DNA of 64,000 nucleotides. Source: an uncultured Clostridia bacterium. Lineage in GTDB: Bacteria > Bacillota > Clostridia > TANB77 > CAG-508. Numbering within the stretch: the stretch's first letter is position 1; each line of letters opens with the position of its first letter. The stretch spans positions 6,489 through 70,488 of the forward strand of contig CAMZHI010000003.1 of the NCBI GenBank assembly GCA_947306755.1. Reading direction: 5' to 3'. Positions 34,331 through 50,946 of the stretch are shown here, piece after piece. Made by a program: the position numbers and the translations under genes. The notes beneath the pieces were generated by a model that saw only the letters and a program-made list of their open reading frames with translations, was not told where the DNA came from and did not search any database.

Positions 34331-34687
34331 GTGATTAATATAACTTATCATAAGGAAGGAGATTATTTGATTCCTGATTTGATTATGGAGAAATCTAATT
34401 CAACTTATAATGTTGGAAAATATGGACATTTAAGAAATAAATTCTTAAAAGAACATAAAAGAGGATTATATACTAAATTAATGATTAATGGAAATTTAAC
34501 AGATCATTTAATTGATATTGATAAAACTGCTACTGCAAGAGTTAAAAATATAATTAATAAACTTGCTAAAACAGAAAATGTGAATGAAGATTTAAAACAA
34601 TCTAACCAATTTGAATGGGTTAGATGTATGAATAATATTAAAAACAGAGCTGAAGAAATTGTTTTTAATGAATTAATATATGTGTAG
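34331..34687 (+). CDS. tnpV: Transposon-associated protein TnpV
   Basis: ORF 34208..34687. Start at GTG (VINITYHKEGDYLIPDL) after AGGAGG. The pattern ITYHKEGDY...GKYG.LR..FLKEH...EIVFNELIY is typical of TnpV. Confidence 0.7.
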   Translation: MINITYHKEGDYLIPDLIMEKSNSTYNVGKYGHLRNKFLKEHKRGLYTKLMINGNLTDHLIDIDKTATARVKNIINKLAKTENVNEDLKQSNQFEWVRCMNNIKNRAEEIVFNELIYV

Positions 34688-34700
34688 GAGGAAATGGAAA

Positions 34701-34991
34701 ATGAGTTTTAGAGAAGTAAATGATGATATTTTAAAAGAGTTTTGGGAATACAGAGACCAAACTGCATTTGCATTTATGACTAAAGAAGATAAAAAACATA
34801 TGATTTATTTTGATGAAATTACAAGCAAAATCTTAAACAGCATTCCTAAACAAAATAGGAAGTTTGTGCAACAGCAACTAAATAAGCTTGATGATAATTT
34901 TTCTGAGTATGTTGGGTATTGGAGTGAGAAGTATTATAGGAATGGATTTTGTGATGGAGTGCAAATGATGTGTGGATGTTTTGAGGAATAG
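34701..34991 (+). CDS. Small mobile-element protein (same loose family as 52778..53032 and 53636..53905)
   Basis: ORF 34680..34991 with start at ATG (MSFREVN). Central L..L....K..L..LDD and C-terminal F..GF motif. Confidence 0.45.
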   Translation: MSFREVNDDILKEFWEYRDQTAFAFMTKEDKKHMIYFDEITSKILNSIPKQNRKFVQQQLNKLDDNFSEYVGYWSEKYYRNGFCDGVQMMCGCFEE

Positions 34992-35048
34992 CTAAAACAA
35001 AAGTGTGAATCTTTACTTTTGTATAAAGTACAATTTTCACACTTTTTA

Positions 35049-35708
35049 TTATGTATCAAGAACATTATTATTACACTTATCAATTTTCGTAATAAAATCT
35101 ATTTTTATATTATTTTTAGGGTTTTTATATTCTTTATTGCAAAACTCTATAAAATCTTGCAACTGTTCCTTAGCCTTTGAAGTTTTTATTATTTTTTGAT
35201 AAGTTTTCTCTAGCCCATAAAAATCTATTAAATTTTCTATCGCCAATCGTAATATTGTAAACATTAATTTATATTGTTTTGAAATAATTGTATGTTGTTT
35301 TCTGTTAATTCTTAGAACATATTTGTCTATTGGATATCTTGCATTAATCATTGTATTATCTCCATAAATTCCTTCCAAATAGTTTATACATTCTTCAATC
35401 CTTAAAAGCTGGTTATTAACTGAATTAATATTTAAGTATTTTATATATTTCCTCCTAACACCTTGTACTAATTCTAAACTTTTATGGTTATCAATTTTCA
35501 AAGTATGTGCTGTTTCTTCTATTTCAAAAAAATCTTGTAAAATTGCTTTTAAATGGTTTTCAATATATTGCATTATTAGTGCTGTTAATGGAGATAATAC
35601 TTCATTAACATTTTCAATTTCTAATAATTTCTTAATTGCTTTTTTATACTCAGAATTATACTTTAAAACCTCTTTATATAATTCTTCTTTCCTACTTTGA
35701 AACTCCAT
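35049..35708 (-). CDS. Hypothetical helical protein, possible HEPN-like
   Basis: 219 aa. Last gene of the Fic operon (16-nt gap). INARYPID loosely resembles the RYP signature seen in some HEPN domains. Weak. Confidence 0.35.
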   Translation of the reverse strand: MEFQSRKEELYKEVLKYNSEYKKAIKKLLEIENVNEVLSPLTALIMQYIENHLKAILQDFFEIEETAHTLKIDNHKSLELVQGVRRKYIKYLNINSVNNQLLRIEECINYLEGIYGDNTMINARYPIDKYVLRINRKQHTIISKQYKLMFTILRLAIENLIDFYGLEKTYQKIIKTSKAKEQLQDFIEFCNKEYKNPKNNIKIDFITKIDKCNNNVLDT

Positions 35709-35724
35709 GTTCTCATACTCCTTT

Positions 35725-36654
35725 TTATTCTTTATGCCCTTTTATAAGCTCATAAATTGGTAAAATTTCAACTTTATCAGGTTCAATATTGTAAATAATC
35801 CTTGCCCTGAATTCTTCCAATTTTAATTGCATCATATCACTAAATTCTCTATAAATTATCTTTGAGTCTTCAGTTTCTTCAATTCTAAAAATATAATCTT
35901 GTAATTTCAGTATTTCTGATAAAACTACAGCTTGTCTTCCTTCTCCTTCTTTGTAATATCTAAAATGTCTTGCAGCTTCTTGTATTTTTATACGTAAATC
36001 ATATAATTTTTGAAATAGTTCATATGTTTTTATATAATTAGCATTTCCTGTAAAAAACTCTACATCTCCTAAGATAAAATTCAAATTATCTGTACTTTGA
36101 TTTAAATAATTCAAATACTGATCCACTATTGTATTAATCTTTTTAGTATTTTTACTATATAACTCTTCAATCTTTTCATCTATATATTTTTTACATGCAT
36201 CTTTAGATATCTTTCCTAGTAACTCTTTATTATCTTCTTTTATTTGCTCTCTTATTAATTTAGTATTTTCAAATTCTCTTGCGGGAATTTCTAGTTTAAT
36301 TTGTTTATAATACTCTGTTATCCCTATTTTTCTTCTTTGTTCGTTTATGAACTTTACAAAAATGTCTTTATCATAATCTATATTCATATAGTCTATACTA
36401 TTCAATCCTATAATCAATTTTCTACATTCATTCCAATATTGTTCTAATACTCTTTTTCTCTCAACTTTATAGGCAGATATATAGAAAAATACTGTAACAA
36501 TTGAACTACAAAATGATCCTAAAAAAACATCTTTCATAAATCCAGTGAAATTATTTGAATACTTTATATCTAATACTTTAAATAATATAGCCATTATAAA
36601 AAGTATACTTGAAATCATAATAGCTAGTTTTGATGCCTTACAATTAACTTTCAT
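35725..36654 (-). CDS. Hypothetical membrane protein (2 N-terminal TM helices plus coiled-coil-like cytoplasmic region)
   Basis: 309 aa. TM segments LAIMISSILFIMAILF and FLGSFCSSIVTVFFYISAY. 11 nt after the Fic gene. Confidence 0.45.
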   Translation of the reverse strand: MKVNCKASKLAIMISSILFIMAILFKVLDIKYSNNFTGFMKDVFLGSFCSSIVTVFFYISAYKVERKRVLEQYWNECRKLIIGLNSIDYMNIDYDKDIFVKFINEQRRKIGITEYYKQIKLEIPAREFENTKLIREQIKEDNKELLGKISKDACKKYIDEKIEELYSKNTKKINTIVDQYLNYLNQSTDNLNFILGDVEFFTGNANYIKTYELFQKLYDLRIKIQEAARHFRYYKEGEGRQAVVLSEILKLQDYIFRIEETEDSKIIYREFSDMMQLKLEEFRARIIYNIEPDKVEILPIYELIKGHKE

Positions 36655-36665
36655 AATTACCTCTT

Positions 36666-37598
36666 CTATTTTAAATAATACTCTATTATTTTAATATACT
36701 GATCCTGTGCATTTAAACAGGTATCAATTAAATATCCTTTTTCTCTATTACTTTGATATTCTTTTAAGCCCCTGTAATAAAATAGTTTATCTTTATCTAG
36801 AATAATAAACGGAATTATATTATTTTTTAAACATTCTTTAAATGCAATTATTCTACCAACTCTGCCATTACAATCTTGAAATGGATGTATTTTTTCAAAT
36901 CTAGCATGAAATTCAATTATTTCGTGAATAGTTATCTGTATCAAAGAATTATACCATTCTACTAATTTTTGCATATTTTTTTGAACATCCTTTGGAGCTG
37001 TTGTTTTCATATCACCAACTGAATTTGGTAGTTGTTTATATTCTCCTACATTAAACCACTCTTTTTGTGCATCAGAAGTTCCTGTTTTTAGTATTTTATG
37101 AAATTTCTTTATCATATCTTCTGTTAATTCATCATTAGCAACATCAATCATATAATCAATTAGTTTAAAGTGATTTGTTGTTTCTATAATATCATTAACA
37201 TTTGCAATTGTTTTATCTTCAAATAAAATTGTATTAGTTTCAAATATATATCGTGTTTGCTCTTCTGTTAATGTACTTCCTTCAATATGATTAGTATTAT
37301 ATGTGAAAGCAATTTGCGTATTATGATATAGATTACCTTTTAATTTCATATCCTTTTGTTCTCTTAATATATCTAACACATTTATATTTGAAATATCAAA
37401 TTCTTTTTCATCACTTAATAATTCATCAATTGATATCTCAAATAATTCAGCTAATCTTTTTAAAGACTCAATATTTGGCTCTAATGCTCCTGATTCATAT
37501 TTAGAAATAGTTGCAGGACTAACATTTAATATATCAGCAACTTCATTTTGAGTCATTCTTTTCTTTTCTCTATATAATTTAATTTTATCTCCTAACAT
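36666..37598 (-). CDS. XRE-type HTH fused to a Fic (AMPylase-family) domain
   Basis: N-terminal LYREKKRMTQNEVADILNVSPATISKYESG. Fic motif HPFQDCNGRVGR (canonical HPFx[D/E]GNGR, with C replacing G). Confidence 0.75.
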   Translation of the reverse strand: MLGDKIKLYREKKRMTQNEVADILNVSPATISKYESGALEPNIESLKRLAELFEISIDELLSDEKEFDISNINVLDILREQKDMKLKGNLYHNTQIAFTYNTNHIEGSTLTEEQTRYIFETNTILFEDKTIANVNDIIETTNHFKLIDYMIDVANDELTEDMIKKFHKILKTGTSDAQKEWFNVGEYKQLPNSVGDMKTTAPKDVQKNMQKLVEWYNSLIQITIHEIIEFHARFEKIHPFQDCNGRVGRIIAFKECLKNNIIPFIILDKDKLFYYRGLKEYQSNREKGYLIDTCLNAQDQYIKIIEYYLK

Positions 37599-37640
37599 AA
37601 TAAAAACTCTCCTTTTTGATTATAATACTATTATATCATA

Positions 37641-37696
37641 TTATTTCCAAAAAAGAAAGTATTTATTCGGCGTTTTGTATTTTATTTCCAAAAAAG
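37641..37696. promoter_or_regulatory. Two 15-bp direct repeats (TTATTTCCAAAAAAG) in the Fic operon promoter region
   Basis: Copies at 37641-37655 and 37682-37696. The downstream copy overlaps a TTGGAA-17-TATTAT promoter read on the minus strand. Confidence 0.45.
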
Positions 37697-37789
37697 ATTT
37701 ATATACATTTCAAATTCTCTTGACATTACCAATAATAAAGTGATTAATAACAATAATTTTTATGGAAATAACTTATTGGAAGTTATATA

Positions 37790-38650
37790 TTATTTCTTAC
37801 TAACATATGTAAGTATTCTTTTACCTAAAAGAGTAATATGAAACCTGTCTATATTTAAATTATTAGCTGTACCAACAGTTACCAAATAATCAACTTGTAA
37901 AACCCCTAAATCATTTAATTTCATAAGTGACTTTGCAAATAAAGCTCCATAGAATGATTCTTCATCATCATTTAAAAGTAGTAAATAATTTAATGGTATT
38001 TCAGGAAATTGACAAAAAGTTCTAAAATCTTTCCAAAAAATAGTAGTATTCTTTAATATAATATTTCTATCTATAAAATCCATTTTTAGCATTTTTAATT
38101 CATTTTTATGATTATTATTATACTTTTCTATTTTTAAATTTTCTTTTTTATTTTTTTCTATATTTAGCTTTTTTTCTTTGCTTTTAAATATATACTCATT
38201 TTTGAATCCCGCATCTAGAAAGGATTTTATTTTTTTTAATAAAATAATATCATTGCTGTTTAAACTTTCAATTATTTCACAAAGTTCTTCTTCTAAATTA
38301 TGTTCTTCTTTCATTATACAATCAATAAATATAGAAATGTATATATCAACCGTTTCAGGTATACATTTTATAATTATATGTTGTAATGAATTCGAAATAA
38401 AGTATTTTTCATGCTCTGGTAAAGTTATTATTTTCTCTTTAAATTCGTCTATAGATATTTTTTTATTCTTTAATTCTTTTTCTATCTTTTTAATTCTTTT
38501 TACTATATCGTTGTCTGAAATTAGTCCCACCACTCTTCTTATAGCATATGTAATTAATGGTATAGCACTAAAGGCTGGATTAACTAATCCCAAAACATTA
38601 GATGATGCATCTGCAAAGTTTATCACATTTTCTATCTTTTCTTTTTTCAT
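37790..38650 (-). CDS. Hypothetical protein (last gene of five-gene operon)
   Basis: 286 aa, no recognisable catalytic motif. The C-terminal LMKLNDLGVLQVDY...ITLLGKRIL has a winged-helix-like flavour. Confidence 0.4.
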   Translation of the reverse strand: MKKEKIENVINFADASSNVLGLVNPAFSAIPLITYAIRRVVGLISDNDIVKRIKKIEKELKNKKISIDEFKEKIITLPEHEKYFISNSLQHIIIKCIPETVDIYISIFIDCIMKEEHNLEEELCEIIESLNSNDIILLKKIKSFLDAGFKNEYIFKSKEKKLNIEKNKKENLKIEKYNNNHKNELKMLKMDFIDRNIILKNTTIFWKDFRTFCQFPEIPLNYLLLLNDDEESFYGALFAKSLMKLNDLGVLQVDYLVTVGTANNLNIDRFHITLLGKRILTYVSKK

Positions 38651-38688
38651 AATTTCTCCTTTTTTAAGCTAATTACATTTACAACTTA

Positions 38689-40101
38689 TCAAATTTTTAT
38701 ATTATCTATCATTCTTTCAAAACAATCTTTATCTAATCCAAAATTGATTAAATAAAACTTATTAATTATATCATTATTATCAAAAATCTCCCCACAATTC
38801 TTACAAAATAAAGATGCTTTATATTCCATTTCTATTTTTAAATTTGCATTATTTACATTACTATTTATAATTTTTATATCTCCAAATCTTGTTATGTTGT
38901 ATTCTAGTGGATCTATAATTTTTAGTTTTTCCAATTCAATCAAATAGTTTTTAACAGCATCATATTTTGAATCCCATATTTCATCTTTACTATAATCAAA
39001 TTCCTTAAAATACTTTAATCCAGAATACTTTTCAACCCATGAAATTATTTTAGCTAATTGAATATTCTTCCCTTCTCTATTTAATATAAACATATCATAT
39101 ATAGCCTTTTGCCATGTTTCTCTAGTGCAATCAAATGCATATTCTCCTTTAACTGGTATATTATACACACTTATACTATTTTTTATATTTTTTTTACTGT
39201 AGTCATCTACTACACTTAAAAATTTATTCACTTTCTTCCTTTTTAAATCTTCTTTATGTTCTATAGCATATTTTCTTTTTTCTTCCTTTTGCTGTTCTTG
39301 AATCATCTTTATTCTTTCTTCATATTCTTTTTTTCTATTTTCTAAATCTCTTTTTTCACACAACTCTTTTTTTGTGTATTTCTCATTTAATACAAAATGC
39401 TTTGTATTATATACTTTATCATATATTTTTCTTTCTTCATTCTCTACTCTTGTTTTAAAAATCCATCCTCTTATAGCGTTAAATAGTATATATTTGTCCA
39501 AATCGAAATCATCTTTTTGCATATCTTCTTTAATAAAACTTAAACATATTTCAATCATATCTATTTTAGATTTTTTAACCTTTTCTTCTTTTTGTTTATC
39601 AACTTCATGTGTAACAAAAATCTCTATTGCTAACTTTTTATTGCCTATTTCAACAATGCAATCTGGAATAAAATCATCAATCCTTACTTCATTTTCTACC
39701 CATTTATACGGATATATACTCTCTTTTATAAAGAATTGATTTGTAATTCGTTCATTATTTTCATTTTCCCACCTATAAATATCTTGAATAAGCGGCATAT
39801 TTACCTCATCAAATCGTAAATACTCACCTACAGTTAAGTCTGGTAATAAAATCTTGTTATTCTTTTTAATTAATTCTTTTGCATATAAATGTAAACTAGT
39901 TTCAAAATTTCCATTACATTGCTTATTGCTCAGATGAGAAAAATGCCATTTGTTTTTTTCTCCCATTCTTGGAATTAATTTTTCACCACATTCTGGACAA
40001 TAACAGTTTTTATAATTTTCCCTATTGTTTATATCTCCTGTTTTTATATAAATCATTTCCTTCTTTTGATTTATAGCAAATGGATTTTTAAATTTTTGCA
40101 T
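38689..40101 (-). CDS. CoiA-like nuclease-family protein
   Basis: YCPECGEKLIPRMGEKNKWHFSH...ETSLHLYAKE and LAIEIFVTHEVDKQK resemble the competence protein CoiA family (zinc ribbon plus PD-(D/E)xK-like core). Confidence 0.55.
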   Translation of the reverse strand: MQKFKNPFAINQKKEMIYIKTGDINNRENYKNCYCPECGEKLIPRMGEKNKWHFSHLSNKQCNGNFETSLHLYAKELIKKNNKILLPDLTVGEYLRFDEVNMPLIQDIYRWENENNERITNQFFIKESIYPYKWVENEVRIDDFIPDCIVEIGNKKLAIEIFVTHEVDKQKEEKVKKSKIDMIEICLSFIKEDMQKDDFDLDKYILFNAIRGWIFKTRVENEERKIYDKVYNTKHFVLNEKYTKKELCEKRDLENRKKEYEERIKMIQEQQKEEKRKYAIEHKEDLKRKKVNKFLSVVDDYSKKNIKNSISVYNIPVKGEYAFDCTRETWQKAIYDMFILNREGKNIQLAKIISWVEKYSGLKYFKEFDYSKDEIWDSKYDAVKNYLIELEKLKIIDPLEYNITRFGDIKIINSNVNNANLKIEMEYKASLFCKNCGEIFDNNDIINKFYLINFGLDKDCFERMIDNIKI

Positions 40102-40164
40102 CTATTTCCTCCCAAAATTCATAAAAAGATAATTAGAGTTCTTCTAATTATCTTTTGTAAAAAA

Positions 40165-42123
40165 CTACTCATATTTATATTCTTCACTATCTTCTGCAAC
40201 CATTAAGACATCATTATCTTCTTCATCAATTGAATATGTAATCTCATTCTTTTGATTCAATCTTTTCTTTAAATAATCTGATAAGTTTTTATCTGTACAA
40301 TAAATATAACAGCCTTTCTGTCCTCTTGTCATTAATGTTCTATATGTATTCTTAATTATTTCATCTGCTATTGTATTAGCTTTTTCAGAGTCCTCTCTAC
40401 TTAACTTATTAATACCTTTTATAGATTGATCTGTTTTAGCTCTTTTTGTTACATCTGTAATTATCTTACCATTCTCGTACCTTAAGTCATCTCCAATAAT
40501 TACACCAATATAATCAAATTCTAGTCCTTGAGCAGTATGTATACATCCAATTTCATTTACTGATTCAGCATCTATCGCCCATGTTTGGCTATTTCCAAGA
40601 TTCCAACTCATTGCAAAATCATATTCTGGAATAGTTATATCATATACATCTGTTTTGTTTTTTCCATCTTTTATCCAGTTCCAGCAATATCCTGCTAATA
40701 ATCTTGCTTTATTATTTATTTTATTTTTTTCAAGTATTAAATCTCTTACTTCGTTTGGAGTATCACATACCTTGATGTCATAATCCAAGTCAAAACCATC
40801 ACTATTGGCTGTCCTTCTAATTTCTAATACATCATCTAACCATGCAATATATCCATCTGAACCATTACATCTAAACTGCGATTCCAATTCCATTATTTCT
40901 GATTCTGCATTAGCTTGTTTTATATATTTTTGTATTTCATCAATACTCCCTATATCCTTTAAGGTTACTCTTTGTGATTCATCTATGAAAAATATTGAAA
41001 ATTTAGAAGCTTTAATAATCTCTTTTATTTGATTTTCTCCTAAGTTTTGAAACATTCCAGATTTCGCATTTAATCTATGTGCTTCATCTACAATTAAAAC
41101 ATCAAATTCATTTTCTGCAGATTCTACAAATGAACCCGAACCTTTAAATAAATTATTAATTCTTGTTTTTCTAAAATCTCCACTTAATTTAGTTGCATAT
41201 ACATTTCTTGGTGCTGCATTTTTTGTAACATATGAACAAACCATATTTTCATTAGTTAATTTTACTAAAAGATTAATTGCTAAAACTGATTTTCCCGTTC
41301 CAGGTCCACCTTTAACAACTAAAACTCTTTTATTTCCATCTCTATATGATTTCCTTGCCATTTCTAATGCTGTTTCATATACAAGTTTTTGATCATCTAT
41401 CATTACAAATTCTTCATTACCTTTTAACATACTTGTTAATGCATCTTGTAATGATTTAGAAGGTCTAATTTTTCCATTTTCAATCATATATAGTGTCTCT
41501 TTATCATCACCATATTTTATGTATCTATTTATAAAGTCTCTTAATTTTTCTACATCTCCCTTTATAAATGCAGGTGCTTTATCTAAGTAGTATTTATAAT
41601 TATCTGCTAATAATGTTGGAGGTGTTACTGTTAAATAATTATGAAGGTATGCACATGGATGTAAATCTATTTGTCTTTCTTGCACTGTTTCATTATAGTC
41701 TTCTATTGTTGTTGCATAAGACCATGCTTGATATGAAGGATGTGCTACTTCCCTTAATGCATGTCCTGTATACGCTTGTACAATTCCATCTTTCCCTTCA
41801 ACTATATCAGCCTCTGTCCATTGTTTTAATTCAACAATAATAGCAGTATTTTTAAGTTTTCCATCTTTACCTGTAATTATAAAATCTACTCTTTTAGATG
41901 TATTTGGAATTTTGAATTCAATTGCAATTCCTACATTCCCTGGTATATTGTTATCAATTAAAACTTTCATCATATATTGCATAGAATTATTCCATGCTTT
42001 TCTTTCATTTTGAGATGTATGATATCCCATCTTTTCATAAAATCTTCTATCTATATTTTCTTCAATTCTATCTTGCACAACATCTTCTACAAACAGTTGC
42101 TTTGTTGCTTCATATACTATCAT
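40165..42123 (-). CDS. DUF2075-type nuclease-helicase (N-terminal PD-(D/E)xK-like module plus SF1 P-loop ATPase)
   Basis: ORF 40165..42138 with start at MIVYEAT. VDFIITG...IIVELKQW (D..E.K), Walker A GGPGTGKS, Walker B LIVDEAHRL, C-terminal QGLEFDYIGVIIG. Confidence 0.75.
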   Translation of the reverse strand: MIVYEATKQLFVEDVVQDRIEENIDRRFYEKMGYHTSQNERKAWNNSMQYMMKVLIDNNIPGNVGIAIEFKIPNTSKRVDFIITGKDGKLKNTAIIVELKQWTEADIVEGKDGIVQAYTGHALREVAHPSYQAWSYATTIEDYNETVQERQIDLHPCAYLHNYLTVTPPTLLADNYKYYLDKAPAFIKGDVEKLRDFINRYIKYGDDKETLYMIENGKIRPSKSLQDALTSMLKGNEEFVMIDDQKLVYETALEMARKSYRDGNKRVLVVKGGPGTGKSVLAINLLVKLTNENMVCSYVTKNAAPRNVYATKLSGDFRKTRINNLFKGSGSFVESAENEFDVLIVDEAHRLNAKSGMFQNLGENQIKEIIKASKFSIFFIDESQRVTLKDIGSIDEIQKYIKQANAESEIMELESQFRCNGSDGYIAWLDDVLEIRRTANSDGFDLDYDIKVCDTPNEVRDLILEKNKINNKARLLAGYCWNWIKDGKNKTDVYDITIPEYDFAMSWNLGNSQTWAIDAESVNEIGCIHTAQGLEFDYIGVIIGDDLRYENGKIITDVTKRAKTDQSIKGINKLSREDSEKANTIADEIIKNTYRTLMTRGQKGCYIYCTDKNLSDYLKKRLNQKNEITYSIDEEDNDVLMVAEDSEEYKYE

Positions 42124-42154
42124 AATAATTGCCCCCATTAATTATTATTTACTT

Positions 42155-42730
42155 TTAATCTAATACATCAAATTGTCTGCTCACTTTAAGTCCCATTGTA
42201 TCATTATCATATGCTATACTAATATTAGCACATTCGCTCATAATATAATTCAATAACTTTAAGCTTTCTTCAAATTGTTTATTTAATTTTTCAAAATCTA
42301 AATCAAAAATTTCTTCCTCTTCTAGAGCATATACAACATCAATATGTCCAAACATTCTATCTCTGAATATCTTTATATTTTCTTCTAGTTCAACATATTC
42401 CTCAAGCTCCTTTCTTATTATTTTTACAACTTTATTTAAATCAGAAATACCTTCACTTTCACTTATATTCAAAAGTTTTACAATAGATGCACACGCTTTA
42501 TCTTTGTCAAACAAATTTCCCATGCCTATAACAATTCTGTATCTCATACTATCTAAAACAGTTCCAAATAATTTAGGATATTCATCAAATTTTTCAAGCA
42601 ACTCTTCATTTTCAATATCACAACATTTATTGTATTGAATTATGGCCTCTCTTATATTTTTGCATTCTAAATAAATTGTAGATAATACATTTTGTAATCT
42701 AGATGCCTTTTTTCCATTTATATATAACAT
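42155..42730 (-). CDS. Hypothetical protein, HEPN (AbiU2-like) candidate
   Basis: 191 aa. GNLFDKDKACASIVKLLN and FRDRMFGHID (R-x5-H) resemble the AbiU2-type HEPN pattern from memory. Confidence 0.4.
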   Translation of the reverse strand: MLYINGKKASRLQNVLSTIYLECKNIREAIIQYNKCCDIENEELLEKFDEYPKLFGTVLDSMRYRIVIGMGNLFDKDKACASIVKLLNISESEGISDLNKVVKIIRKELEEYVELEENIKIFRDRMFGHIDVVYALEEEEIFDLDFEKLNKQFEESLKLLNYIMSECANISIAYDNDTMGLKVSRQFDVLD

Positions 42731-42738
42731 TTTCCCCC

Positions 42739-43053
42739 CTATAGTTTGTTATATTTTGTACTAACTCCCTTAGCTTTTTCTACTGGATATTTTTTTCTTG
42801 TTTTGTCCAATTTCTTTAAAATTATTTCTTTAGGATCTACTCCTAATTTCATAGCCATTTGAATGCAATATGTAAAAACGTCTGCCAATTCTTCGCATAC
42901 TTCTTCTTTATCATAATCATTATTCCATTGAAAACACTCTAAAAGCTCACCAGCTTCAATAGAAATTGATTTTGCTAAATTTTCAGGAGAATGAAATTGA
43001 TCCCAATCTCTTTCCTTATTAAAAATATCTATTTCTTTTATTAATTCTTCCAT
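42739..43053 (-). CDS. MazG-like nucleotide pyrophosphohydrolase
   Basis: FNKERDWDQFHSPENLAKSISIEAGELLECFQW and EELADVFTY are typical of small all-alpha MazG-type NTP pyrophosphatases. Confidence 0.8.
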   Translation of the reverse strand: MEELIKEIDIFNKERDWDQFHSPENLAKSISIEAGELLECFQWNNDYDKEEVCEELADVFTYCIQMAMKLGVDPKEIILKKLDKTRKKYPVEKAKGVSTKYNKL

Positions 43054-43269
43054 CTTTACCTCTCAAAACATTATAATTACTCTAGTATATGTTATATCAC
43101 AAAATTGATTTTTAAACAACATACCTTCCAGTATTTTGAAATAATCTGAATAAATTGATTTAATTCTTATAATATTTTTGTATGTATTAAAATTATATAA
43201 AAAATATTTATTAAATATATTGAATTTATTTTTAATATGTATTATAATTATTTTCATAGGAGGAAGCTT

Positions 43270-43449
43270 ATGAAAAAAGTTGGAAGGCCAAAAGGAAAAA
43301 ATAAAGATACTCGCCTAAATATTATGATATCATCTGATTTAAAAAATGAATTTCAAAAAATAGTATCACAAAATGGTTCAAATGTTTCTGTAAAAATTTG
43401 TGAGCTTATTGTTAATTATATAAAAGAACAAAAGGAGGAAAATAAATGA
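43270..43449 (+). CDS. Small ribbon-helix-helix-like DNA-binding protein upstream of the methyltransferase
   Basis: ORF 43237..43449 with start at ATG (MKKVGRPKGKNKDTRLNIMISSDLKNEFQ) after AGGAGG. Overlaps the methyltransferase start (ATGA). Confidence 0.5.
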   Translation: MKKVGRPKGKNKDTRLNIMISSDLKNEFQKIVSQNGSNVSVKICELIVNYIKEQKEENK

Positions 43450-44579
43450 ATGTAATAGATTTATTTGCAGGATGTGGAGGTTTAAGTCTAGGTTTTGAAA
43501 TGGCTGGATTCAATATTCCTCTTGCAATTGAAAAAGACGAATGGGCGTCTGAAACATACAAAAAAAATCACCCTTCAACAAAAGTATTAACTGGTGATAT
43601 TACACAAATAGTTGATTTAGAAAATTTAATTTCAAAAAAAGATTTACCAATTGATGGAATAATTGGTGGTCCTCCTTGTCAAGGTTTTTCATTAAGTGGT
43701 AACAGAGATAAAAATGATCCCAGAAATAGTTTATTTATGGAATTCGTTAGATTCGTTAAATATTTTAAGCCAAAATTTTTTGTAATGGAAAATGTTACAG
43801 GAATTTTATCAATGAAAACAAAAGATAATAAAAGCGTAAAAGATCTTATTCTTTCAGAATATGATACTGCAGGATATAATGTTAAAATTTGTAGATTAAA
43901 TGCAGCTGAATACGGTGTTCCTCAATCTCGATTAAGAATTGTATTTATTGGTATTAGAAAAGATATACCTTTTAATGAAGAAAAAATAGGACCTATTCCG
44001 TTTTTATTTGGGAAAGACCAAGTTACAATAGAACAAGCAATTATGGACTTACCTCAAATAGATTCTGGTGAAGGAAAAGATTTTATAGAATATTCTCAAA
44101 AACCTAAAAGCAATTATCAAAAATGGGCTAGAAATAATAGCGATGGTGTATATAATCATATAGCAATGCGACATACTAAAAGACTCATTGAGCGTTTTAA
44201 AAATATAGACTTTGGGCAATCTGTTGCTGATGTCGATGAATGTCATCAACAAAGAAAAAGAGGTGATGCGTCAAAAATCAGTGGAAAAGTATTTTCACAA
44301 AATAATATGCGTCCATATCCAAATAAACCATCTCCTACTGTTCCAGCAAGTTTTCAAAGTAATTTTATACACCCGTACCTTAATCGTAATTTTACTGCAA
44401 GAGAAGGAGCAAGATTACAATCCTTCCCTGATACTTATATATTTTGTGGCAAAAGAACTACAATGTCTTGGGAAAAAAATCTTTCTCAATACCAACAAAT
44501 TGGCAATGCAGTACCTCCTCTATTAGCTAAAGCAATTGCTAAAAATATAATTGAATATATAAAAGAACTAGGATTTTAA
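43446..44579 (+). CDS. DNA (cytosine-5)-methyltransferase
   Basis: Motif I DLFAGCGG, motif IV GGPPCQGFS, ENV, QxRxR (QSRLR), and C-terminal QIGNAVPP. Confidence 0.95.
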   Translation: MNVIDLFAGCGGLSLGFEMAGFNIPLAIEKDEWASETYKKNHPSTKVLTGDITQIVDLENLISKKDLPIDGIIGGPPCQGFSLSGNRDKNDPRNSLFMEFVRFVKYFKPKFFVMENVTGILSMKTKDNKSVKDLILSEYDTAGYNVKICRLNAAEYGVPQSRLRIVFIGIRKDIPFNEEKIGPIPFLFGKDQVTIEQAIMDLPQIDSGEGKDFIEYSQKPKSNYQKWARNNSDGVYNHIAMRHTKRLIERFKNIDFGQSVADVDECHQQRKRGDASKISGKVFSQNNMRPYPNKPSPTVPASFQSNFIHPYLNRNFTAREGARLQSFPDTYIFCGKRTTMSWEKNLSQYQQIGNAVPPLLAKAIAKNIIEYIKELGF

Positions 44580-44598
44580 TTCTAGTTCTCTTTATATA

Positions 44599-45393
44599 TT
44601 AATCATTCGGTTTCAATAACTTTCCAGGATATAATATTTCTTCGAATATAGTTGATTCATCAATTGCATTCACGATTTCTTCATAATATGATTTTAATAC
44701 CTTGAAAGAAATTGGATCTTCATTGTTATCTCCTCTATTTCTCAATACAAACATTTCATCTAATGCATTATCATGTCTAGCAGCTAATATTTTTTCTTCA
44801 GCCACAACAATACCTTCCATCAAAATATATGTTCTCGCATTAGGTGTTGCATTTTTTATTTGCATACTTGAATATTTAACCTCACCAAACATAGTAGCAT
44901 CTAAATATGTTTTAACCTCAACGCAAACTATTGGAATTATTAAATCTATTGAATTTTTACTATCAATTGTTATATTCACTTTTTTTCCTATACAAAAATC
45001 AACATCTTTTGTTAGAATATCTATATCAAGTTCATTATTAATTTTCATCCCGGCAAAAATACCTTTATTAAATATTCCTAAAGCCCCGCTTTTTATTGGC
45101 TCTATATCCTTAAATAAATATGTGCTAATCTCTTCTATAAAAGTAGATCTAAATTTTGATTGTGATTTTATACCTACTTCACTCTCAAATGTATTTATTT
45201 CGTTAATATAATCATCCATTATTTTTGCTGCTTTTTTAAATGTTTTCTCATCTTCACTAGAAAAAGTAATACTATTAAGTTTATCCTTGACTTTTAAATA
45301 TTTTTCTTCATAAAACTTTTTTATTTCTTCACCTTTCCCATTATAGTTGTTTCTTATTTTAGCTTGATAATTGTTTTCGTGTATATATAACAT
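44599..45393 (-). CDS. Probable type II restriction endonuclease (PD-(D/E)xK)
   Basis: Convergent with the m5C methyltransferase (19-nt gap). DLIIPIVCVEVKTYLD fits a D...E-x-K catalytic core. Confidence 0.55.
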   Translation of the reverse strand: MLYIHENNYQAKIRNNYNGKGEEIKKFYEEKYLKVKDKLNSITFSSEDEKTFKKAAKIMDDYINEINTFESEVGIKSQSKFRSTFIEEISTYLFKDIEPIKSGALGIFNKGIFAGMKINNELDIDILTKDVDFCIGKKVNITIDSKNSIDLIIPIVCVEVKTYLDATMFGEVKYSSMQIKNATPNARTYILMEGIVVAEEKILAARHDNALDEMFVLRNRGDNNEDPISFKVLKSYYEEIVNAIDESTIFEEILYPGKLLKPND

Positions 45394-45969
45394 TTTAATC
45401 TCCTCCTTTTTATATTATAGTATATATGCTTAATTTTGTAAACTTTAAAAATGTTGAACTTCTATTTTTTTTATTATTGCTCTATTTTAAATAAAGGGGC
45501 TGGGAGTTACTCCCATAAATCAAAAAATACCTTTTGTGTACACAAATGGGAATCTTGCTGTTATCTATATGTTAAAAAAATAGATTAATTCTATATAATA
45601 TTTGCATTTAAAATATTGCTTATTGGTTATAATTTTTGCAATCTAAAAATAGTTATTTTTTGTTGATATATCAAGCCTTAGATAGATAATTCTCCCGAGG
45701 AGACTTTATTGTGGTATCATGTTTCTAATGCATTTTGATTTCATTAATAATTTTAATGATAATTTTTAAATAAGAGCTCTATAAATTCAATTAGTTTTAT
45801 CGCTATTTTCAGCTTATCTCAGCAGTTTTATAGATTTTTCTCATCATGAGAATTTTTGAATTTTTATATAATTACCTTTCTTGTTAAATATCATTATATA
45901 TGCTATACTGTCTATAAAGAAAAAATATATAAGGATATATGAAAAAATATTTTTCATGGAGGAATAACT

Positions 45970-46569
45970 ATGGATAATAATGATAAAAAAATTTGGAAAA
46001 AATGGTGGTTCTGGTCTATAATTTTTTTAATAATTATAATATCACCATTTATTAATACAAATAATCCCAATTCTAATCAAACTAATAATGAAACACAAAC
46101 TGTAAATGAACCTATAAATAATGAAGTAAAAGAAATTGAATATGCTGAAGATAATTTAATTAATAAATTCATTACTGATTTCAAATCTTCTTCAAGTTAT
46201 GAACTAACTGATATAGAGAAAGGAAACATTAATACTAAATATTTTGCTTATATAAATGGACAATACTGTGAGTTTTTAAACTCAACAGGATCTCTAGCTA
46301 ATTGTTTTAATATAACAATATATGGTGGAAATGAAGAAGAAGATATTAATAAAATAATTAATGTTTATAAAGAAGTAATAAAAGCTTTGGATTCAAGTAT
46401 TTCTGAATCATATATAAATGATGCTATTATGGAACATATTAAAAGTCCATCTAACAGTTTTAAAATTAATGATAGTATAAGTGTAAAATTATATCCTATT
46501 GTTGAATTATCTTATGGAAAATCTAAGTGTAAAATTGAAATAACGACAACAATTTATAATAAAAAATAA
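45970..46569 (+). CDS. Membrane-anchored hypothetical protein
   Basis: 199 aa. N-terminal TM WWFWSIIFLIIIISPFI followed by an N/T-rich linker. Confidence 0.45.
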   Translation: MDNNDKKIWKKWWFWSIIFLIIIISPFINTNNPNSNQTNNETQTVNEPINNEVKEIEYAEDNLINKFITDFKSSSSYELTDIEKGNINTKYFAYINGQYCEFLNSTGSLANCFNITIYGGNEEEDINKIINVYKEVIKALDSSISESYINDAIMEHIKSPSNSFKINDSISVKLYPIVELSYGKSKCKIEITTTIYNKK

Positions 46570-46579
46570 ATTACAATTC
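46567..46579. repeat. Junction motif copy in opposite orientation (TAAATTACAATTC)
   Basis: Supplies the TAA stop of plus-strand gene 45970..46569. Same gene-relative orientation as copies a, d and f. Confidence 0.5.
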
Positions 46580-46611
46580 AAAAATCAGCACAAACGCATT
46601 GGAATCAAAGG

Positions 46612-46651
46612 GATTGCTCAATTATTCCCCATTGGGAACTTATGAGCAATC
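46612..46651 (+). terminator. Long hairpin followed by a T-rich tract
   Basis: GATTGCTCA ... TGAGCAATC with inner TTCCC/GGGAA pairing, then CTTTCTTATT. Confidence 0.5.
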
Positions 46652-46740
46652 TTTCTTATTATACAGCAGAGTTAATATAATTATCAACAAATTTATTAAA
46701 TTCTTTTTCATTTACCATTACTCACAACCCTACTTATTCA

Positions 46741-47264
46741 CAATAAACTGATCAAAAAAATCTGGTGGATATTGTCTTTGTTCATAATTTACATACCCAC
46801 TTTTGTATTTATTATTTTCTATTATATTCTTTTCTTTTATTTTTTCTTCTGTTCCGTTACCGTAACGTTACATCAACGTTATTTTCATTTTTCTGATTTT
46901 CTCTAAATCTTCTTTGTCTTTCTCTATTTTGTTCTAACATTTTTTCATATTTATCAGCACTTTGATACTTCTCCCAATTTTTAATTATGTATGTATTATT
47001 TTCAAATATAATCATTTCGCAATGGATTAACTTATCCAATATATTTTTAATTTTTTTGTTGGTTTTTTGTGTAATCTTTGCAAGATCTTCCACAGTTAAT
47101 GGTTGATTTGTTGAAAACATTATCTTTCCACCTTGCGCGCTTGTCCCAGCAATTGTTAATAATTGAATCCATATTCTAAATATTGTATCTCCATCACGCT
47201 CTTTTAATAATAGTTGAATTTTAGGATTTCCAAATATACTTGTAAAAATCTTAATCCATTGCAT
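46741..47264 (-). pseudogene. Phage replisome-organizer gene with a frameshift near its 3' end
   Basis: ORF 46857..47264 (MQWIKIFTSIFGNPKIQLLLKERDGDTIFRIWIQLLTIAG is typical of the replisome organizer N-terminus) stops at ..NVDVTLR*. The expected tail (NGTEEKIKEK...YVNYEQRQYPPDFFDQFIVNK*) continues in the +1 frame to 46741. Confidence 0.6.
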
Positions 47265-47281
47265 ACAGTCATTCTCCTTTC

Positions 47282-47485
47282 TTACTTATTTAATGAATTT
47301 TCTTCTTTTGCACTTAAGTATTCATCTAAAGCTTTAACTCTAAATAACACTCTTCCACCAACTCTTGCACATGGTATTTGTTTTCTTCTAACTAATTGAT
47401 TTACTAACCAATATGAAACTCCTAAATACTCAGCTGTTTCTTTCATTGTTAGTGTTATTCTTTCAACTTTTGGTAGTTCGTTCAT
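47282..47485 (-). CDS. Excisionase-family (MerR-like HTH) DNA-binding protein
   Basis: LTMKETAEYLGVSYWLVNQLVRRKQIPCARVGGRVLFRVKALDEYL matches the excisionase HTH pattern. Confidence 0.8.
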   Translation of the reverse strand: MNELPKVERITLTMKETAEYLGVSYWLVNQLVRRKQIPCARVGGRVLFRVKALDEYLSAKEENSLNK

Positions 47486-47505
47486 AAAATCACCTCCTCA
47501 TTTTT

Positions 47506-47575
47506 ATGCACATTTCAGCACAAATCAGCACAAATTTGCACAAAATTACACAAATCAGCAAATTTCAGCATTTTT
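47506..47575. repeat. Seven ~10-bp iteron-like repeats (CAGCACAAAT variants)
   Basis: TGCACATTT CAGCACAAAT CAGCACAAATT TGCACAAAAT TACACAAAT CAGCAAATTT CAGCATTTTT. A single related copy, AATCAGCACAAA, sits at 46583-46594. Confidence 0.7.
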
Positions 47576-47706
47576 AATGTTTTTTTGTTATATGCTTTGT
47601 ATAATGTAACTAGCTAATTACTAATTGTTATTTTAATTGTCTATTTAAGAATTAAAAACCATACAAATGAAAAAAATATTTATTTTTGAGTTGTAGGGGG
47701 TATTTT

Positions 47707-48693
47707 ATGATTTCAAATATTGAAATGTTTTTTGATTTTAAAAATTCTAAAGAATACATTTCTAGCTATTCATTAGAAAAAGTTGACGATAATAAAATAA
47801 GAATAAAAACAACTTATCCAAAGAAACAAGAATTAGGAAACTTTTTACTAGATTTTATGAACACAGAGTTTAATGACCATATAGATTTTACTATTTTTGT
47901 TAAAGATTATCTATTTATTCATTTATTAAGCTTATATGATAATACTATTGTAGGTGATATGAATAATTATTCTGTTGTATTAAATAGAGAATATTTACAA
48001 GACTTTATTGACTGGATATATGATGAATTATCATTAGATTTTTCAATGCTTAAAATTAGATTAGAACAAGTTTTTACAAATAGCTATTATAAGAACATCT
48101 TAAATATTACTGATATTTTAGATAAGGATTATGATATTATAGAAGACCTTGCTGAAAAAGAACATAATTACTCTGCTATAAACACTATATTAGAAGAAAA
48201 TCCTACATTATTTATAAATTATAATTTAAACACATTTTTTATGAACAATATACCTGAAAACCTATCAGCAAATTACACATTTTCTTCGGATTCTGTTGAA
48301 AACTTTTTATACTGTATTGTAAAAGAATTAATAAGTAATATTAAGAATATAAAATTTGAATGTTGTAAAAATTGTAACTATTGGTTTATACACACTAAAA
48401 ACAAAGAACAGCAATATTGTGATGACCTATATACTGATACTAAAACTTGTTTTGAAATTGCAAAAGAAGAACGTGATAGAAAAAATGAAAAAGATGATAT
48501 TTTTTTGCAAAAATGCAGAAAAAGATATAAAAATTTGCACAAACAAATCTCAATAGGTGCTTCTGAAAAAGTAGAAAATCGTTTTAGAATTTTTAAAGAA
48601 GAATATCCTGTTTATCAGAAAAGATATAAAGAAGGATTAATAACAGGTGAAGAATTGATGGATTGGCTTGAATTCATGAGATCAAAAAAATAA
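47707..48693 (+). CDS. Hypothetical mobile-element protein with a C-terminal Cys cluster
   Basis: ORF 47686..48693 with start at ATG (MISNIEMFFDF) after GGGGG. Contains CCKNCNYWF...YCDD...CFE. Confidence 0.5.
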   Translation: MISNIEMFFDFKNSKEYISSYSLEKVDDNKIRIKTTYPKKQELGNFLLDFMNTEFNDHIDFTIFVKDYLFIHLLSLYDNTIVGDMNNYSVVLNREYLQDFIDWIYDELSLDFSMLKIRLEQVFTNSYYKNILNITDILDKDYDIIEDLAEKEHNYSAINTILEENPTLFINYNLNTFFMNNIPENLSANYTFSSDSVENFLYCIVKELISNIKNIKFECCKNCNYWFIHTKNKEQQYCDDLYTDTKTCFEIAKEERDRKNEKDDIFLQKCRKRYKNLHKQISIGASEKVENRFRIFKEEYPVYQKRYKEGLITGEELMDWLEFMRSKK

Positions 48694-48710
48694 AACTAAA
48701 TATTTTAGTT

Positions 48711-49745
48711 TTATTTTTTTTCAAATACTTTATTATCTCCTAAATATGTAGTAGCATTGGTTTTCAGCATTATTATTTTATTTTCAAGTAAATCTAAAAA
48801 ATTAAGATTTTCATATACAACATTTCTTAATTCTTCATAGTTAATTGCTACAATTATGGTACCGTTCATTAAATAATTTGCATTTGCTACTTTCAATGCT
48901 GGTTTGGTTGGATCTTTTATTGCAACTATAATACCACTCTTTGATTTAAATATATTCAAAATCCCTTGTATTTTGTGATAATATGTATTTCCTGGACTTG
49001 ATTTTTCATTTTTGCATTCTACAATAATTAGACTTCCTAATTCATTTAAAAAATATGGTATTCCAATTCTCAATTTATTTTTAACTAAACAATCAATTTC
49101 ATTTGTTTCTGTCCTGACATTAGCAGATTCAAAAACTTTAACTATTCTTAAAACATATTCTGTAAAATCTCTTAATTGATTTCCCAAAGCCGTAGTATTA
49201 TTTTCTTTTTGTCCTATTTTTTCAAATAATTTTATCATGTCATTTTTTTGTTCTTCTGTAGGTCTATAAAAAATGTCATTTGGGTTTAAAATCTTATCCT
49301 CAAAAAATCCTCTTAAAGAATCTGTATCAGTATAACTCAAATTTTTTTTTATATTATTTGAATCAATTATATCTGATTCAATTTTCTTTTTTTTATATAA
49401 TATTTGAATATCCTCATCTGTTATTTCCAAATTCTCAAATTCACAAGCATCACAATTATTAATATCATTAATCTCATTGTACAAATCTTCTATTGAAACA
49501 ATTTTTATAACATGATTACATTCTGGACATTTTATAGCATATCTACGCTCTAAAATATCTAAACTAACAGAATCTTCTAAAATAGATTTTGCCATACTAA
49601 ATTCAATGTCCAATTCATTAGTTGCTTTTGCTATTGAAATCCTGTCACTTATCCTCGATGGAATGTTATATAACCATGAATCATATTTTTCAATTATTTT
49701 TTTGTCATATTTTTTTTCAAGAGTTAATAATGTTTGATAATACAT
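48711..49745 (-). CDS. Zinc-ribbon protein with C-terminal PD-(D/E)xK (Mrr-like) nuclease domain
   Basis: CPECNHVI...CDACEFENL ribbon. NEIDCLVKN...LIIVECKNEK fits a D...E-x-K core, followed by GIIVAIK...ANANY as in Mrr-type catalytic domains. Confidence 0.55.
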   Translation of the reverse strand: MYYQTLLTLEKKYDKKIIEKYDSWLYNIPSRISDRISIAKATNELDIEFSMAKSILEDSVSLDILERRYAIKCPECNHVIKIVSIEDLYNEINDINNCDACEFENLEITDEDIQILYKKKKIESDIIDSNNIKKNLSYTDTDSLRGFFEDKILNPNDIFYRPTEEQKNDMIKLFEKIGQKENNTTALGNQLRDFTEYVLRIVKVFESANVRTETNEIDCLVKNKLRIGIPYFLNELGSLIIVECKNEKSSPGNTYYHKIQGILNIFKSKSGIIVAIKDPTKPALKVANANYLMNGTIIVAINYEELRNVVYENLNFLDLLENKIIMLKTNATTYLGDNKVFEKK

Positions 49746-50880: not shown

Positions 50881-50946
50881 TATTATTCCCCCTCATTTTA
50901 CATTTTATTATAATATTTTTTTGTTTTTTTTTCAATATAGTATTCC

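Follow-up and report, generated by a model that had tools for sequence, protein, structure and literature searches.

Do five closely spaced genes within an integrative element of a Clostridia bacterium encode one composite anti-phage system, or does the locus hold several systems side by side? The genes lie at positions 37790–43053 of a 64,000-nucleotide stretch of contig CAMZHI010000003.1 from an uncultured Clostridia bacterium (hereafter the window, meaning the whole stretch analysed; G+C 21–34%). An earlier note, made from the sequence alone, had read them as a MazG-like gene, a HEPN (AbiU2-like) gene, a DUF2075 nuclease-helicase gene, a CoiA-like nuclease gene and a gene without recognisable motif, and had left two possibilities: one multi-component system, or two or three small ones stacked behind a shared promoter. 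We consider, with a probability of about 0.7, that the locus is a stack of separate anti-phage genes around a MazG-DUF2075 pair with a docking slot, and not one machine.

Five co-directional open reading frames (ORFs) were confirmed on the minus strand at 42739–43053, 42155–42730, 40165–42138, 38689–40101 and 37790–38650, encoding 104, 191, 657 (652 from the ATG at 42123), 470 and 286 amino acids (aa) in that order. The spacers are 8, 16, 63 and 38 nt, as the earlier note had given them, and the second becomes 31 nt with the 652-aa start. The proteins of the window were compared with the Pfam, PADLOC, NCBIfam and PHROG profile libraries. The pair, its predicted promoter and the gene between the two partners are as follows.

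43091..43119, minus strand: conserved sigma-A-type promoter, predicted from a 15-locus alignment (TTGTTT, 17-nt spacer with TG, TATAAC)
42739..43053, minus strand: first gene of the pair, for a 104-aa MazG-like all-alpha nucleoside triphosphate pyrophosphohydrolase of DCTPP1/RS21-C6 type (PF12643)
42155..42730, minus strand: HEPN_AbiU2 protein, 191 aa, in the variable slot between MazG and DUF2075 (PF18734)
40165..42123, minus strand: nuclease-helicase, 652 aa, second gene of the pair (PF09848; putative N-terminal PD-(D/E)XK-like motif E69, D80, E98-L-K100)

Conservation of the MazG-DUF2075 pair

Gene presence was scored in 80 loci with a DUF2075 relative, one genome per species, whose helicases are 58–97% identical to the window helicase. 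All window proteins were searched by tblastn and MazG by an iterative profile search; 76 loci were assessable for MazG, and one locus (L034) was scored from DNA homology. MazG is linked to DUF2075 in 58 of the 76. It lies immediately upstream of DUF2075 in most loci, downstream in six, and divergently in three loci of the Macrococcus group (two Macrococcoides, one Macrococcus). The gap between the two genes is 21–30 nt in the Clostridia group and ranges from 19 nt to a 4-nt overlap in distant loci. The pair spans Bacillota, Bacteroidota, Halobacteria and the DPANN archaea, the last represented by two Woesearchaeota metagenome-assembled genomes (MAGs). Plasmids of the haloarchaeon Halalkalicoccus jeotgali and of Marivirga (Bacteroidota) each carry a gene annotated as 'nucleotide pyrophosphohydrolase' directly upstream of the DUF2075 gene.

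The reciprocal comparison, with MazG as the query against metagenome contigs (80 loci, 66 assessable), gave a DUF2075 gene downstream of MazG in 65 of the 66 loci, and the contig of the sole exception ends inside an insert. Thirty-five of these pairs are adjacent with the same architecture, 18 contain an insert and 12 have MazG adjacent to a GIY-YIG-DUF2075 variant. MazG and DUF2075 are a deeply conserved pair.

The identities of the two partners to their window counterparts are uncoupled (MazG/DUF2075 87%/65%, 88%/46% and 67%/87%, and MazG 89% beside the GIY-YIG type), which argues against a tightly co-adapted complex and points to recombination between both genes.

In the GIY-YIG variant, found in 12 of the 66 metagenome loci, a GIY-YIG nuclease replaces the PD-(D/E)XK-like one at the N-terminus, and the accompanying MazG is 75–90% identical to that of the window. 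Examples are L131 (6330–8135), L145 (6324–8033) and L022 (8118–9899), where L numbers denote individual loci; further cases are L133, L135, L139, L142, L156, L161, L173, L174, L178 and L182. The MazG partnership thus follows the helicase module, and not one particular nuclease. A different arrangement is seen on a Hymenobacter canadensis plasmid (L187, 3501–7487), where two tandem DUF2075 genes of this family (51% and 31% identity to the window helicase) have no MazG and adjoin a DNA methyltransferase gene and a DUF4747 gene.

A variable slot inside the operon

Between the window and dozens of relatives, DNA homology breaks off at the stop codon of MazG (window 42739/40), resumes at about 42148–42158, at the DUF2075 leader AATAATAATTAATGGGGGCAATTATT-ATG, and ends again at the helicase stop codon (40165/6). 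Since this leader precedes the helicase gene in all relatives, the helicase start is placed at 42123, giving the 652-aa protein. The breaks at the MazG stop and the DUF2075 leader identify the AbiU2 gene as a cassette in a slot within the operon. Its product matches PF18734 (E=9.5e-16, 58.3 bits against a cut-off of 26.8), in agreement with the first assignment, and contains the R-x5-H motif as RDRMFGH; no significant match was found among PDB sequences.

When the slot is empty, MazG and DUF2075 are 21–30 nt apart. Inserts occupy it in about 20 of 49 genome loci and in at least 18 metagenome loci, all of them co-oriented with the pair. AbiU2 is in none of the 80 species-level genome loci. The occupants found elsewhere include the following.

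L011: PLD-helicase-DUF3427 enzyme, then a NUDIX gene (PADLOC mREase_IV, 2e-224)
L015: AspBHI-like enzyme (PADLOC mREase_II, 1e-152)
L039: ApeA (PADLOC PDC-S58)
L136: defence reverse transcriptase (DRT RT_UG13b, 4e-114)
L106: Ymh-type HEPN protein (PF09509, Hypoth_Ymh, 1.2e-25; PADLOC PD-Lambda-3_B, 8.6e-14)
L022: GIY-YIG-DUF2075 paralogue (Pfam)
L032: DUF4160 protein (Pfam)
L147: DUF4236 protein (Pfam)
L105, L126: Mrr_cat and type I restriction-modification (R-M) genes (Pfam Mrr_cat, HsdM_N)
Various loci: proteins without a family in Pfam or PADLOC

The MazG alleles of L105 and L126 are 97–98% identical to that of the window, yet Mrr_cat and type I R-M genes fill their slot. No attC-like or other repeats were seen at the cassette borders when the junctions were read, and the mosaicism of MazG and DUF2075 suggests that cassettes are probably exchanged by homologous recombination in the flanking genes.

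Since the slot holds recognisable defence genes, the family-less slot genes, together with those for DUF4236 and DUF4160, are strong candidates for new defence genes, and the slot itself offers a handle for defence-gene discovery. The family-less products comprise proteins of 198 and 205 aa (L021 2847–3443, L033 9367–9984), 140 aa (L036/L037 9556–9978, L049/L056 9557–9979), 263 and 264 aa (L153 1748–2539, L163 1995–2789) and 347 aa (L034 133–1176, equal to L088 2873–3916), and a pair of 114 and 125 aa (L018 3077–3830).

Four genes fill the slot of L017 (noted at 4875–6165), encoding a PLD-helicase, a NUDIX protein, a 106-aa protein and a 327-aa HNH protein; the 106-aa protein appears MazG/HisE-like by eye, with no Pfam match at E<=0.001. 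A small NUDIX (NUDIX_4) gene repeatedly adjoins PLD-helicase-DUF3427 (PADLOC mREase_IV) or SRA-HNH genes, as in L011 (6460–9986), L017 (1352–4888), L024, L033, L145 (8110–11248) and L091 (7510–9073). NUDIX with type IV restriction looks like a conserved sanitising-pyrophosphatase pairing of its own.

A second MazG-AbiU2-DUF2075 arrangement occurs in a divergent lineage (L177), with MazG at 74%, AbiU2 at 48% (its motif reads RDKMFAH) and DUF2075 at 63% identity. It bears on a rival explanation that treats MazG, AbiU2 and DUF2075 as three genes of one functional unit: as a second line of defence by abortive infection, the HEPN RNase would lie latent while the nuclease-helicase checks or monitors it, and the slot would be a dedicated position for interchangeable guarded effectors. 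A precedent is the anticodon nuclease PrrC, which is embedded in EcoprrI, a type I R-M system, and guarded by it. The gene order of L177 speaks for such a unit, as do the tight packing of AbiU2 (8 and 31 nt), its service by the promoter of the pair and the presence of at least three HEPN families (AbiU2, ApeA and Ymh) in the slot. It also has a parallel in HEPN genes, including AbiU2, that are embedded in R-M operons as a layered strategy (Anantharaman et al. 2013). On the other hand, the slot is empty in most loci, AbiU2 is missing from the genome set, near-identical MazG alleles carry unrelated cargo, and in one case the slot houses a complete type I R-M system. Other occupants, namely type IV/IIM restriction endonucleases, ApeA and the defence reverse transcriptases (DRTs), work alone elsewhere. 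We consider a functional unit of these three genes unlikely, and prefer to see AbiU2 as one of many genes docked in the slot of a MazG-DUF2075 pair.

The two partner proteins and their predicted promoter

The MazG-like protein was recognised correctly in the earlier note: it matches PF12643 at E=1.5e-21 (76.9 bits, curated cut-off 27), and its PDB matches are deoxycytidine triphosphate (dCTP) pyrophosphatase 1 (6sqw) and RS21-C6 (2a3q), both at E=9e-18. The DCTPP1 motifs DW-QFH-P-NL, E33-x2-E36, FQW and E54/E55-x2-D58 are kept. The metal ligands E33, E36, E54/E55 and D58 align with the E-x2-E...E-x2-D motif of DCTPP1, and the aromatic residues of its pocket are also retained. Judged by its sequence, MazG is clearly a homologue of the dCTP pyrophosphatase DCTPP1/RS21-C6. 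No PADLOC model matched it. DCTPP1 serves in the housekeeping sanitation of modified dCTP, not in immunity, and prefers 5-modified dCTP.

DNA homology with relatives reaches 50–90 nt upstream of MazG, and within it a TTG...TGATATAA block is invariant or near-invariant in the alignment of 15 loci. This conservation suggests that the predicted promoter at 43091–43119 travels with MazG.

The second partner matches PF09848 (DUF2075, now SLFN-g3_helicase) at E=5.7e-107 over residues 270–616 and contains both GPGTGKS and DEAH (Walker A and B), as first noted. At the N-terminus, E69, D80, E98, L99 and K100 are invariant among 32 orthologues of 51–98% identity. For the N-terminal domain, 1802 family clusters were counted at 50% identity; among the 150 best matches listed it is, with few exceptions, likewise N-terminal, in proteins of about 620–650 or about 790 aa. 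More distant orthologues of the helicase, at 25–65% identity, also exist. Searching the full helicase against PDB sequences returned only P-loop noise (RecA, spermidine synthase). The protein ends in an acidic tail, ...VAEDSEEYKYE (window 40165–40200), which the 66%-identical L039 orthologue keeps as ...VAEDSEEYRYE and which is reminiscent of the acidic protein-interaction tips of single-stranded DNA-binding (SSB) proteins.

The region downstream of the helicase gene

The following features lie beyond the helicase stop codon, on the same strand.

40124..40156, minus strand: 14-bp A/U-rich hairpin with a U-rich stretch, directly after the DUF2075 stop (RNA fold)
38689..40101, minus strand: CoiA_N zinc-ribbon protein, 470 aa (PF25164; putative restriction-endonuclease-like core D147, E160)
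37790..38650, minus strand: 286-aa protein with one weakly hydrophobic N-terminal segment (ORF; hydropathy)
36666..37598, minus strand: HTH_3-Fic protein, 310 aa (PF02661, PF01381; PADLOC PDC-S04 1.5e-105, SoFic 2e-22)
35049..36654, minus strand: two genes after Fic, encoding proteins of 309 aa (N-terminal hydrophobic segments) and 219 aa (ORFs, hydropathy)

The hairpin has a folding energy of about -13 kcal/mol (centroid -13.2; minimum free energy of the 69-nt stretch -14.3; z=-2.6 against shuffles). A scan for consensus terminators misses it because it has too few G-C pairs. It may act as a terminator or attenuator between the core and the downstream cargo. Beyond the helicase gene, gene content is extremely variable among the 80 genome loci (more than 240 protein clusters), and no conserved third gene follows DUF2075 across them.

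The CoiA-like protein matches PF25164 at E=4.9e-12 (45.6 bits, cut-off 26.3) over residues 25–63. Its description as a CoiA-like nuclease stands as regards this zinc ribbon and a conserved D...E-I core (D147, E160 and also H165 are conserved in the family), while the CoiA nuclease domain itself escaped detection: Pfam gave no match for residues 60–235 even at E<=5, and nothing credible for the tail at that threshold. In the AlphaFold2 model, with a predicted local distance difference test (pLDDT) score of 88, the C-terminal ~240 residues form a coiled coil, a winged-helix-like part and a second zinc ribbon. Foldseek against the PDB gave weak matches (E 0.02–0.5, none at E<=0.001), most of which are PD-(D/E)XK nucleases (Bax1, RecU, HincII, PA-N and Hjc); we take these as a thematic hint to a restriction-endonuclease-like core. 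A search against PDB sequences returned nothing. The family is small (36 clusters), and the gene occurs in one of the 80 genome loci, that of Clostridium sp. CAG:571 (L039). In sister elements it follows DUF2075, and the next gene there encodes a DUF8370 protein and not the 286-aa protein. Two islands carry CoiA-like genes without MazG or DUF2075, one with CoiA_N, NUDIX, SRA-HNH, Dam and AAA_15 genes, the other with a type III R-M system and AAA_15, CoiA_N, NOV_C and KAP genes.

For the 286-aa protein, the four libraries yielded no family, in keeping with the absence of recognisable motifs in the earlier note, and Pfam at E<=5 gave nothing credible. Its homologues form 57 clusters at about 41–62% identity, and the gene is in none of the 80 genome loci. 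Relatives lie beside a MutH-like restriction endonuclease and a C5 methyltransferase behind an integrase, alone between HSP20 and HisRS genes, or in an AbiEii / SEFIR-TIR island; none of those examined has MazG, DUF2075 or CoiA_N as a neighbour. The CoiA-like gene is independent single-gene cargo, and so is the 286-aa gene; like the family-less slot genes, both are candidate new defence genes by their position.

The HTH-Fic gene, on the same strand as the five genes, is a further defence candidate. It is found at variable distance in about 12 related loci and is semi-conserved in the element family. No family was found in the four libraries, or in Pfam at E<=5, for the 309-aa and 219-aa proteins encoded after it. 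A homologue of the 309-aa protein (72–78% identity) follows Fic in L010 (13749–15607) and L013 (7855–9714), as it does in the window (35725–37598), and in the sister elements L001, L039 and L088 Fic is followed by a STAND-like NTPase of 1300–1940 aa. Fic with the 309-aa protein, or Fic with the STAND-like NTPase, may be two-gene Fic modules.

The carrier element

The five genes are divergent from a type II R-M module, as was first described, and both lie within an integrative element.

43237..45393, mixed strands: type II R-M module, divergent from the five genes (PF00145, PF09549, PADLOC MTase_II)
43237–43449, plus strand: small helix-turn-helix (HTH) protein of the R-M module
43446–44579, plus strand: C5 methyltransferase (PF00145 1.5e-80; PADLOC MTase_II 1e-142)
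44599–45393, minus strand: Bpu10I-like endonuclease (PF09549 1.5e-10)
34331..52312, no strand assigned: integrative element, approximate extent (Pfam marks on the identical metagenome locus L087)
34331–34687: TnpV, at one element end
34701–34991: 96-aa ORF beside TnpV, at the same end
46857–47264: Phage_rep_org_N, at the other end
47282–47485: HTH_17 (excisionase-like)
47686–48693: DUF6076
51116–52312: tyrosine integrase

Metagenome locus L087 has an identical five-gene block with TnpV on one side and Phage_rep_org_N, HTH_17, DUF6076 and the tyrosine integrase on the other. With the integrase, excisionase-like gene and TnpV in these flanks, the statement that the genes lie inside an integrated element holds. 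The integrative element that carries the genes measures about 18 kb and belongs to a low-GC Clostridia bacterium of gut or rumen; the closest relatives come from gut and rumen Clostridia MAGs. Sister elements share backbone DNA homology at window 34104–34997 and 46797–47000. No att-type direct repeats of at least 12 nt were found at the presumed element ends and a tRNA scan found none. Two overlapping minus-strand genes (344 and 387 aa; window 48711–50880) lie between DUF6076 and the integrase gene and have no Pfam family on the L087 record. Viral-contig scans gave no relatives of AbiU2 or the helicase, so these two genes are apparently not phage-borne.

The backbone raises the possibility that MazG and DUF2075 are maintenance or replication genes of the element, a pool-sanitising enzyme with a replicative or processing helicase-nuclease, near which defence genes merely accumulate because insertions are tolerated in this part of the element. 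The Clostridia-group pair is indeed always in the same backbone, near Phage_rep_org_N or RepA_N and excisionase-like genes, and DCTPP1-type enzymes are housekeeping sanitisers in other organisms. However, the pair also occurs outside this backbone. In Alloiococcus it stands among SNF2-NOV_C and GmrSD-HNH genes, in a Woesearchaeote among UvrD-PDDEXK, NOV_C and C5 methyltransferase genes with HNH, and elsewhere on the archaeal and Bacteroidota plasmids, while the MazG-less orthologues stand alone in Bacillaceae chromosomes. The helicase, moreover, with its putative nuclease, has the nuclease plus DUF2075 plan of the phage-defending Nhi and Nhi-like proteins and matches the PADLOC models AbiO, Nhi and PDC-S41. 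A maintenance role seems to us even less likely than the three-gene unit.

That all five genes are one obligate multi-component anti-phage system is highly improbable: they point the same way at short spacing, apparently behind a single upstream promoter, and the L087 block is identical (probably from the same strain or element), but the composition is in none of the 80 genome loci and none of the 80 MazG-anchored metagenome loci, AbiU2, the CoiA-like gene and the 286-aa gene each have relatives in other contexts, homology breaks exactly at gene boundaries, and a hairpin follows the helicase gene. The gene-order comparison that the earlier note had proposed found AbiU2 and the 286-aa gene in 0/80 loci with DUF2075, the CoiA-like gene in 1/80 and the five-gene order in none of them; relatives of the CoiA-like and 286-aa genes stand in unrelated defence islands or alone. 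Since the five-gene linkage is not conserved, the single-system reading is refuted on that note's own terms. Its alternative of two or three small systems on a shared promoter is supported, with the MazG-DUF2075 pair conserved and AbiU2 inserted precisely between the two genes. Testable units thus replace the five-gene system.

Proposed mechanism

In the arrangement that we propose, the core would be a two-gene operon with its own promoter, encoding the MazG pyrophosphatase and then the nuclease-helicase. At the MazG/DUF2075 junction (slot 1), promoterless co-oriented defence genes would ride on the operon transcript; the occupant here is the AbiU2-family HEPN protein, a predicted RNase of abortive-infection type. 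Slot 2, after the helicase stop and the hairpin, would hold the genes for the CoiA-like putative nuclease and the 286-aa protein, followed by HTH-Fic. Slot 2 is a second variable region, and each of these three genes occurs elsewhere without the others. AbiU2, the CoiA-like nuclease, the 286-aa protein and Fic would then provide independent extra layers.

The nuclease-helicase would most likely attack phage DNA or replication intermediates in the fashion of Nhi. MazG would most likely act via the nucleotide pool and not as a bound subunit, because it is exchangeable among very different DUF2075 partners, dispensed with by some orthologues, and DCTPP1-like. Its most likely activity would be the hydrolysis of 5-modified dCTP (or dCTP), denying phages the building and protection of modified-cytosine DNA. 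Modified-cytosine-dependent enzymes or NUDIX genes recur in or near the module (AspBHI-like, PLD-helicase-DUF3427 with NUDIX, GmrSD), and modification-dependent restriction endonucleases adjoining DUF2075 NTPases have been described (Lutz et al. 2019, PMC6765204). These neighbours fit, circumstantially, a hypothetical role against modified-cytosine phages.

A bolder version of this proposal would describe a widespread two-gene immune module, in which a modified-dCTP pyrophosphatase strips hypermodification or dCTP, the nuclease-helicase destroys the unprotected or stalled DNA, and the junction is an effector docking site, possibly with PrrC-style guarding. We put it forward tentatively, as doubtful in its full form and yet with somewhat better prospects than the rival explanations above. 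If it were true, the promoterless second-line effectors docked and exchanged there would range from HEPN RNases and methyl-directed restriction enzymes to a defence reverse transcriptase and entire R-M systems. Should MazG act on modified dCTP, host nucleotide sanitation would tie in with the restriction of modified-DNA phages, by a route unlike the known dCTP-deaminase and dGTPase depletion systems.

Several observations weigh against the picture of a defensive pair with docked cargo. Eighteen Bacillaceae-type helicase orthologues (58–63% identity) lack MazG, so that at least some members of the family can do without it; these genes stand alone in Bacillaceae chromosomes, and apart from one divergent NUDIX gene in L054 no alternative conserved partner was found in their loci. 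The PADLOC matches of the helicase are partial and modest (PDC-S41 5e-18, AbiO 1e-16, Nhi 4e-16). The D...E-L-K nuclease module of the earlier note is borne out by its invariant residues but not by a fold: the N-terminal domain has no credible Pfam match at E<=5 and no meaningful PDB match with a 32-sequence profile, and the AlphaFold2 model of the helicase, built from a shallow alignment of 87–91% identical homologues, has a pLDDT of 42 and leaves the nuclease fold unconfirmed. We thus call the nuclease putative, on the strength of the motif and not of the fold. The scan of the locus for consensus promoters and terminators did not exceed the shuffled expectation, so that the promoter call rests on cross-locus conservation, and the transcript structure is a matter of inference. 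Which substrate MazG would prefer is extrapolated from the mammalian enzyme DCTPP1 and from the neighbouring genes. Finally, the single recurrence of AbiU2 in the slot of L177 gives some weight to a functional tie between AbiU2 and the core.

Comparison with known systems

The closest described parallels are single-gene defences that join a nuclease to DUF2075, namely Nhi of Staphylococcus epidermidis (SERP2475; Bari et al. 2022) and 'Nhi-like' (Millman et al. 2022), which has no sequence identity with Nhi. In domain plan, by which Nhi-like too was compared, the window helicase agrees with both: a putative N-terminal nuclease of PD-(D/E)XK type and a DUF2075 superfamily 1 (SF1) helicase are joined in a single polypeptide. 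The 'Nhi-type' label of the earlier note is thus apt for the architecture but goes too far for the sequence, as the PADLOC Nhi, AbiO and PDC-S41 matches are partial (E 1e-16 to 1e-18). The PADLOC Nhi profile shows no full-length homology with the S. epidermidis Nhi family: the match is limited to helicase residues 182–425 (profile positions 124–331 of 470), and the nuclease domains are not alignable. Whereas Nhi and Nhi-like are described as single genes, the window family is paired with MazG in about three quarters of orthologous loci. The MazG-less orthologues in Bacillaceae would be compatible with a helicase gene that suffices for phage defence on its own. AbiO of Lactococcus and PDC-S41 are likewise DUF2075-type ATPase proteins, listed as defence or candidate defence. 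Of the PADLOC models PDC-S41 matches best, and its profile length (657) resembles the window helicase, but the low scores and partial alignments make both at best distant relatives, and PDC-S41 is a single-gene candidate without MazG.

The window MazG resembles DCTPP1/RS21-C6 in sequence and in the retained metal-binding acidic and aromatic pocket residues, but it is a 104-aa prokaryotic minimal form, carried on a mobile element in a defence operon. The CoiA-like protein shares with CoiA the N-terminal CoiA_N zinc ribbon, a conserved D...E-I core and weak restriction-endonuclease-like fold matches; it differs in lacking a Pfam match to the CoiA nuclease, in its C-terminal extension of ~240 residues and in its location in defence islands and not among competence genes.

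As a gene inside another defence operon with shared transcription, AbiU2 resembles PrrC in EcoprrI, the HEPN genes in R-M loci of Anantharaman et al. and the defence genes that lie within BREX or type I R-M operons. The host operon here, however, encodes MazG and a nuclease-helicase and is not an R-M operon, and its slot is open to many unrelated genes. The fixed position, conserved flanks and exchanged, co-oriented and often promoterless defence cargo recall P2/P4 hotspots and integron cassette arrays, but the flanks here are two genes of one small operon and have no attC-like repeat.

A pairing of MazG with DUF2075, Nhi-like or other defence helicases was not found in the literature searched or in PADLOC models, and in DefensePredictor (2026) MazG is a predicted, unvalidated defence domain. 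A DCTPP1-type pyrophosphatase is thus an unreported conserved partner for a large family of Nhi-like nuclease-helicases (~1800 N-domain clusters). What is new here is that a nuclease-helicase of the Nhi-like plan has a conserved partner in a pyrophosphatase, and that the operon of the two contains a slot for cassettes.

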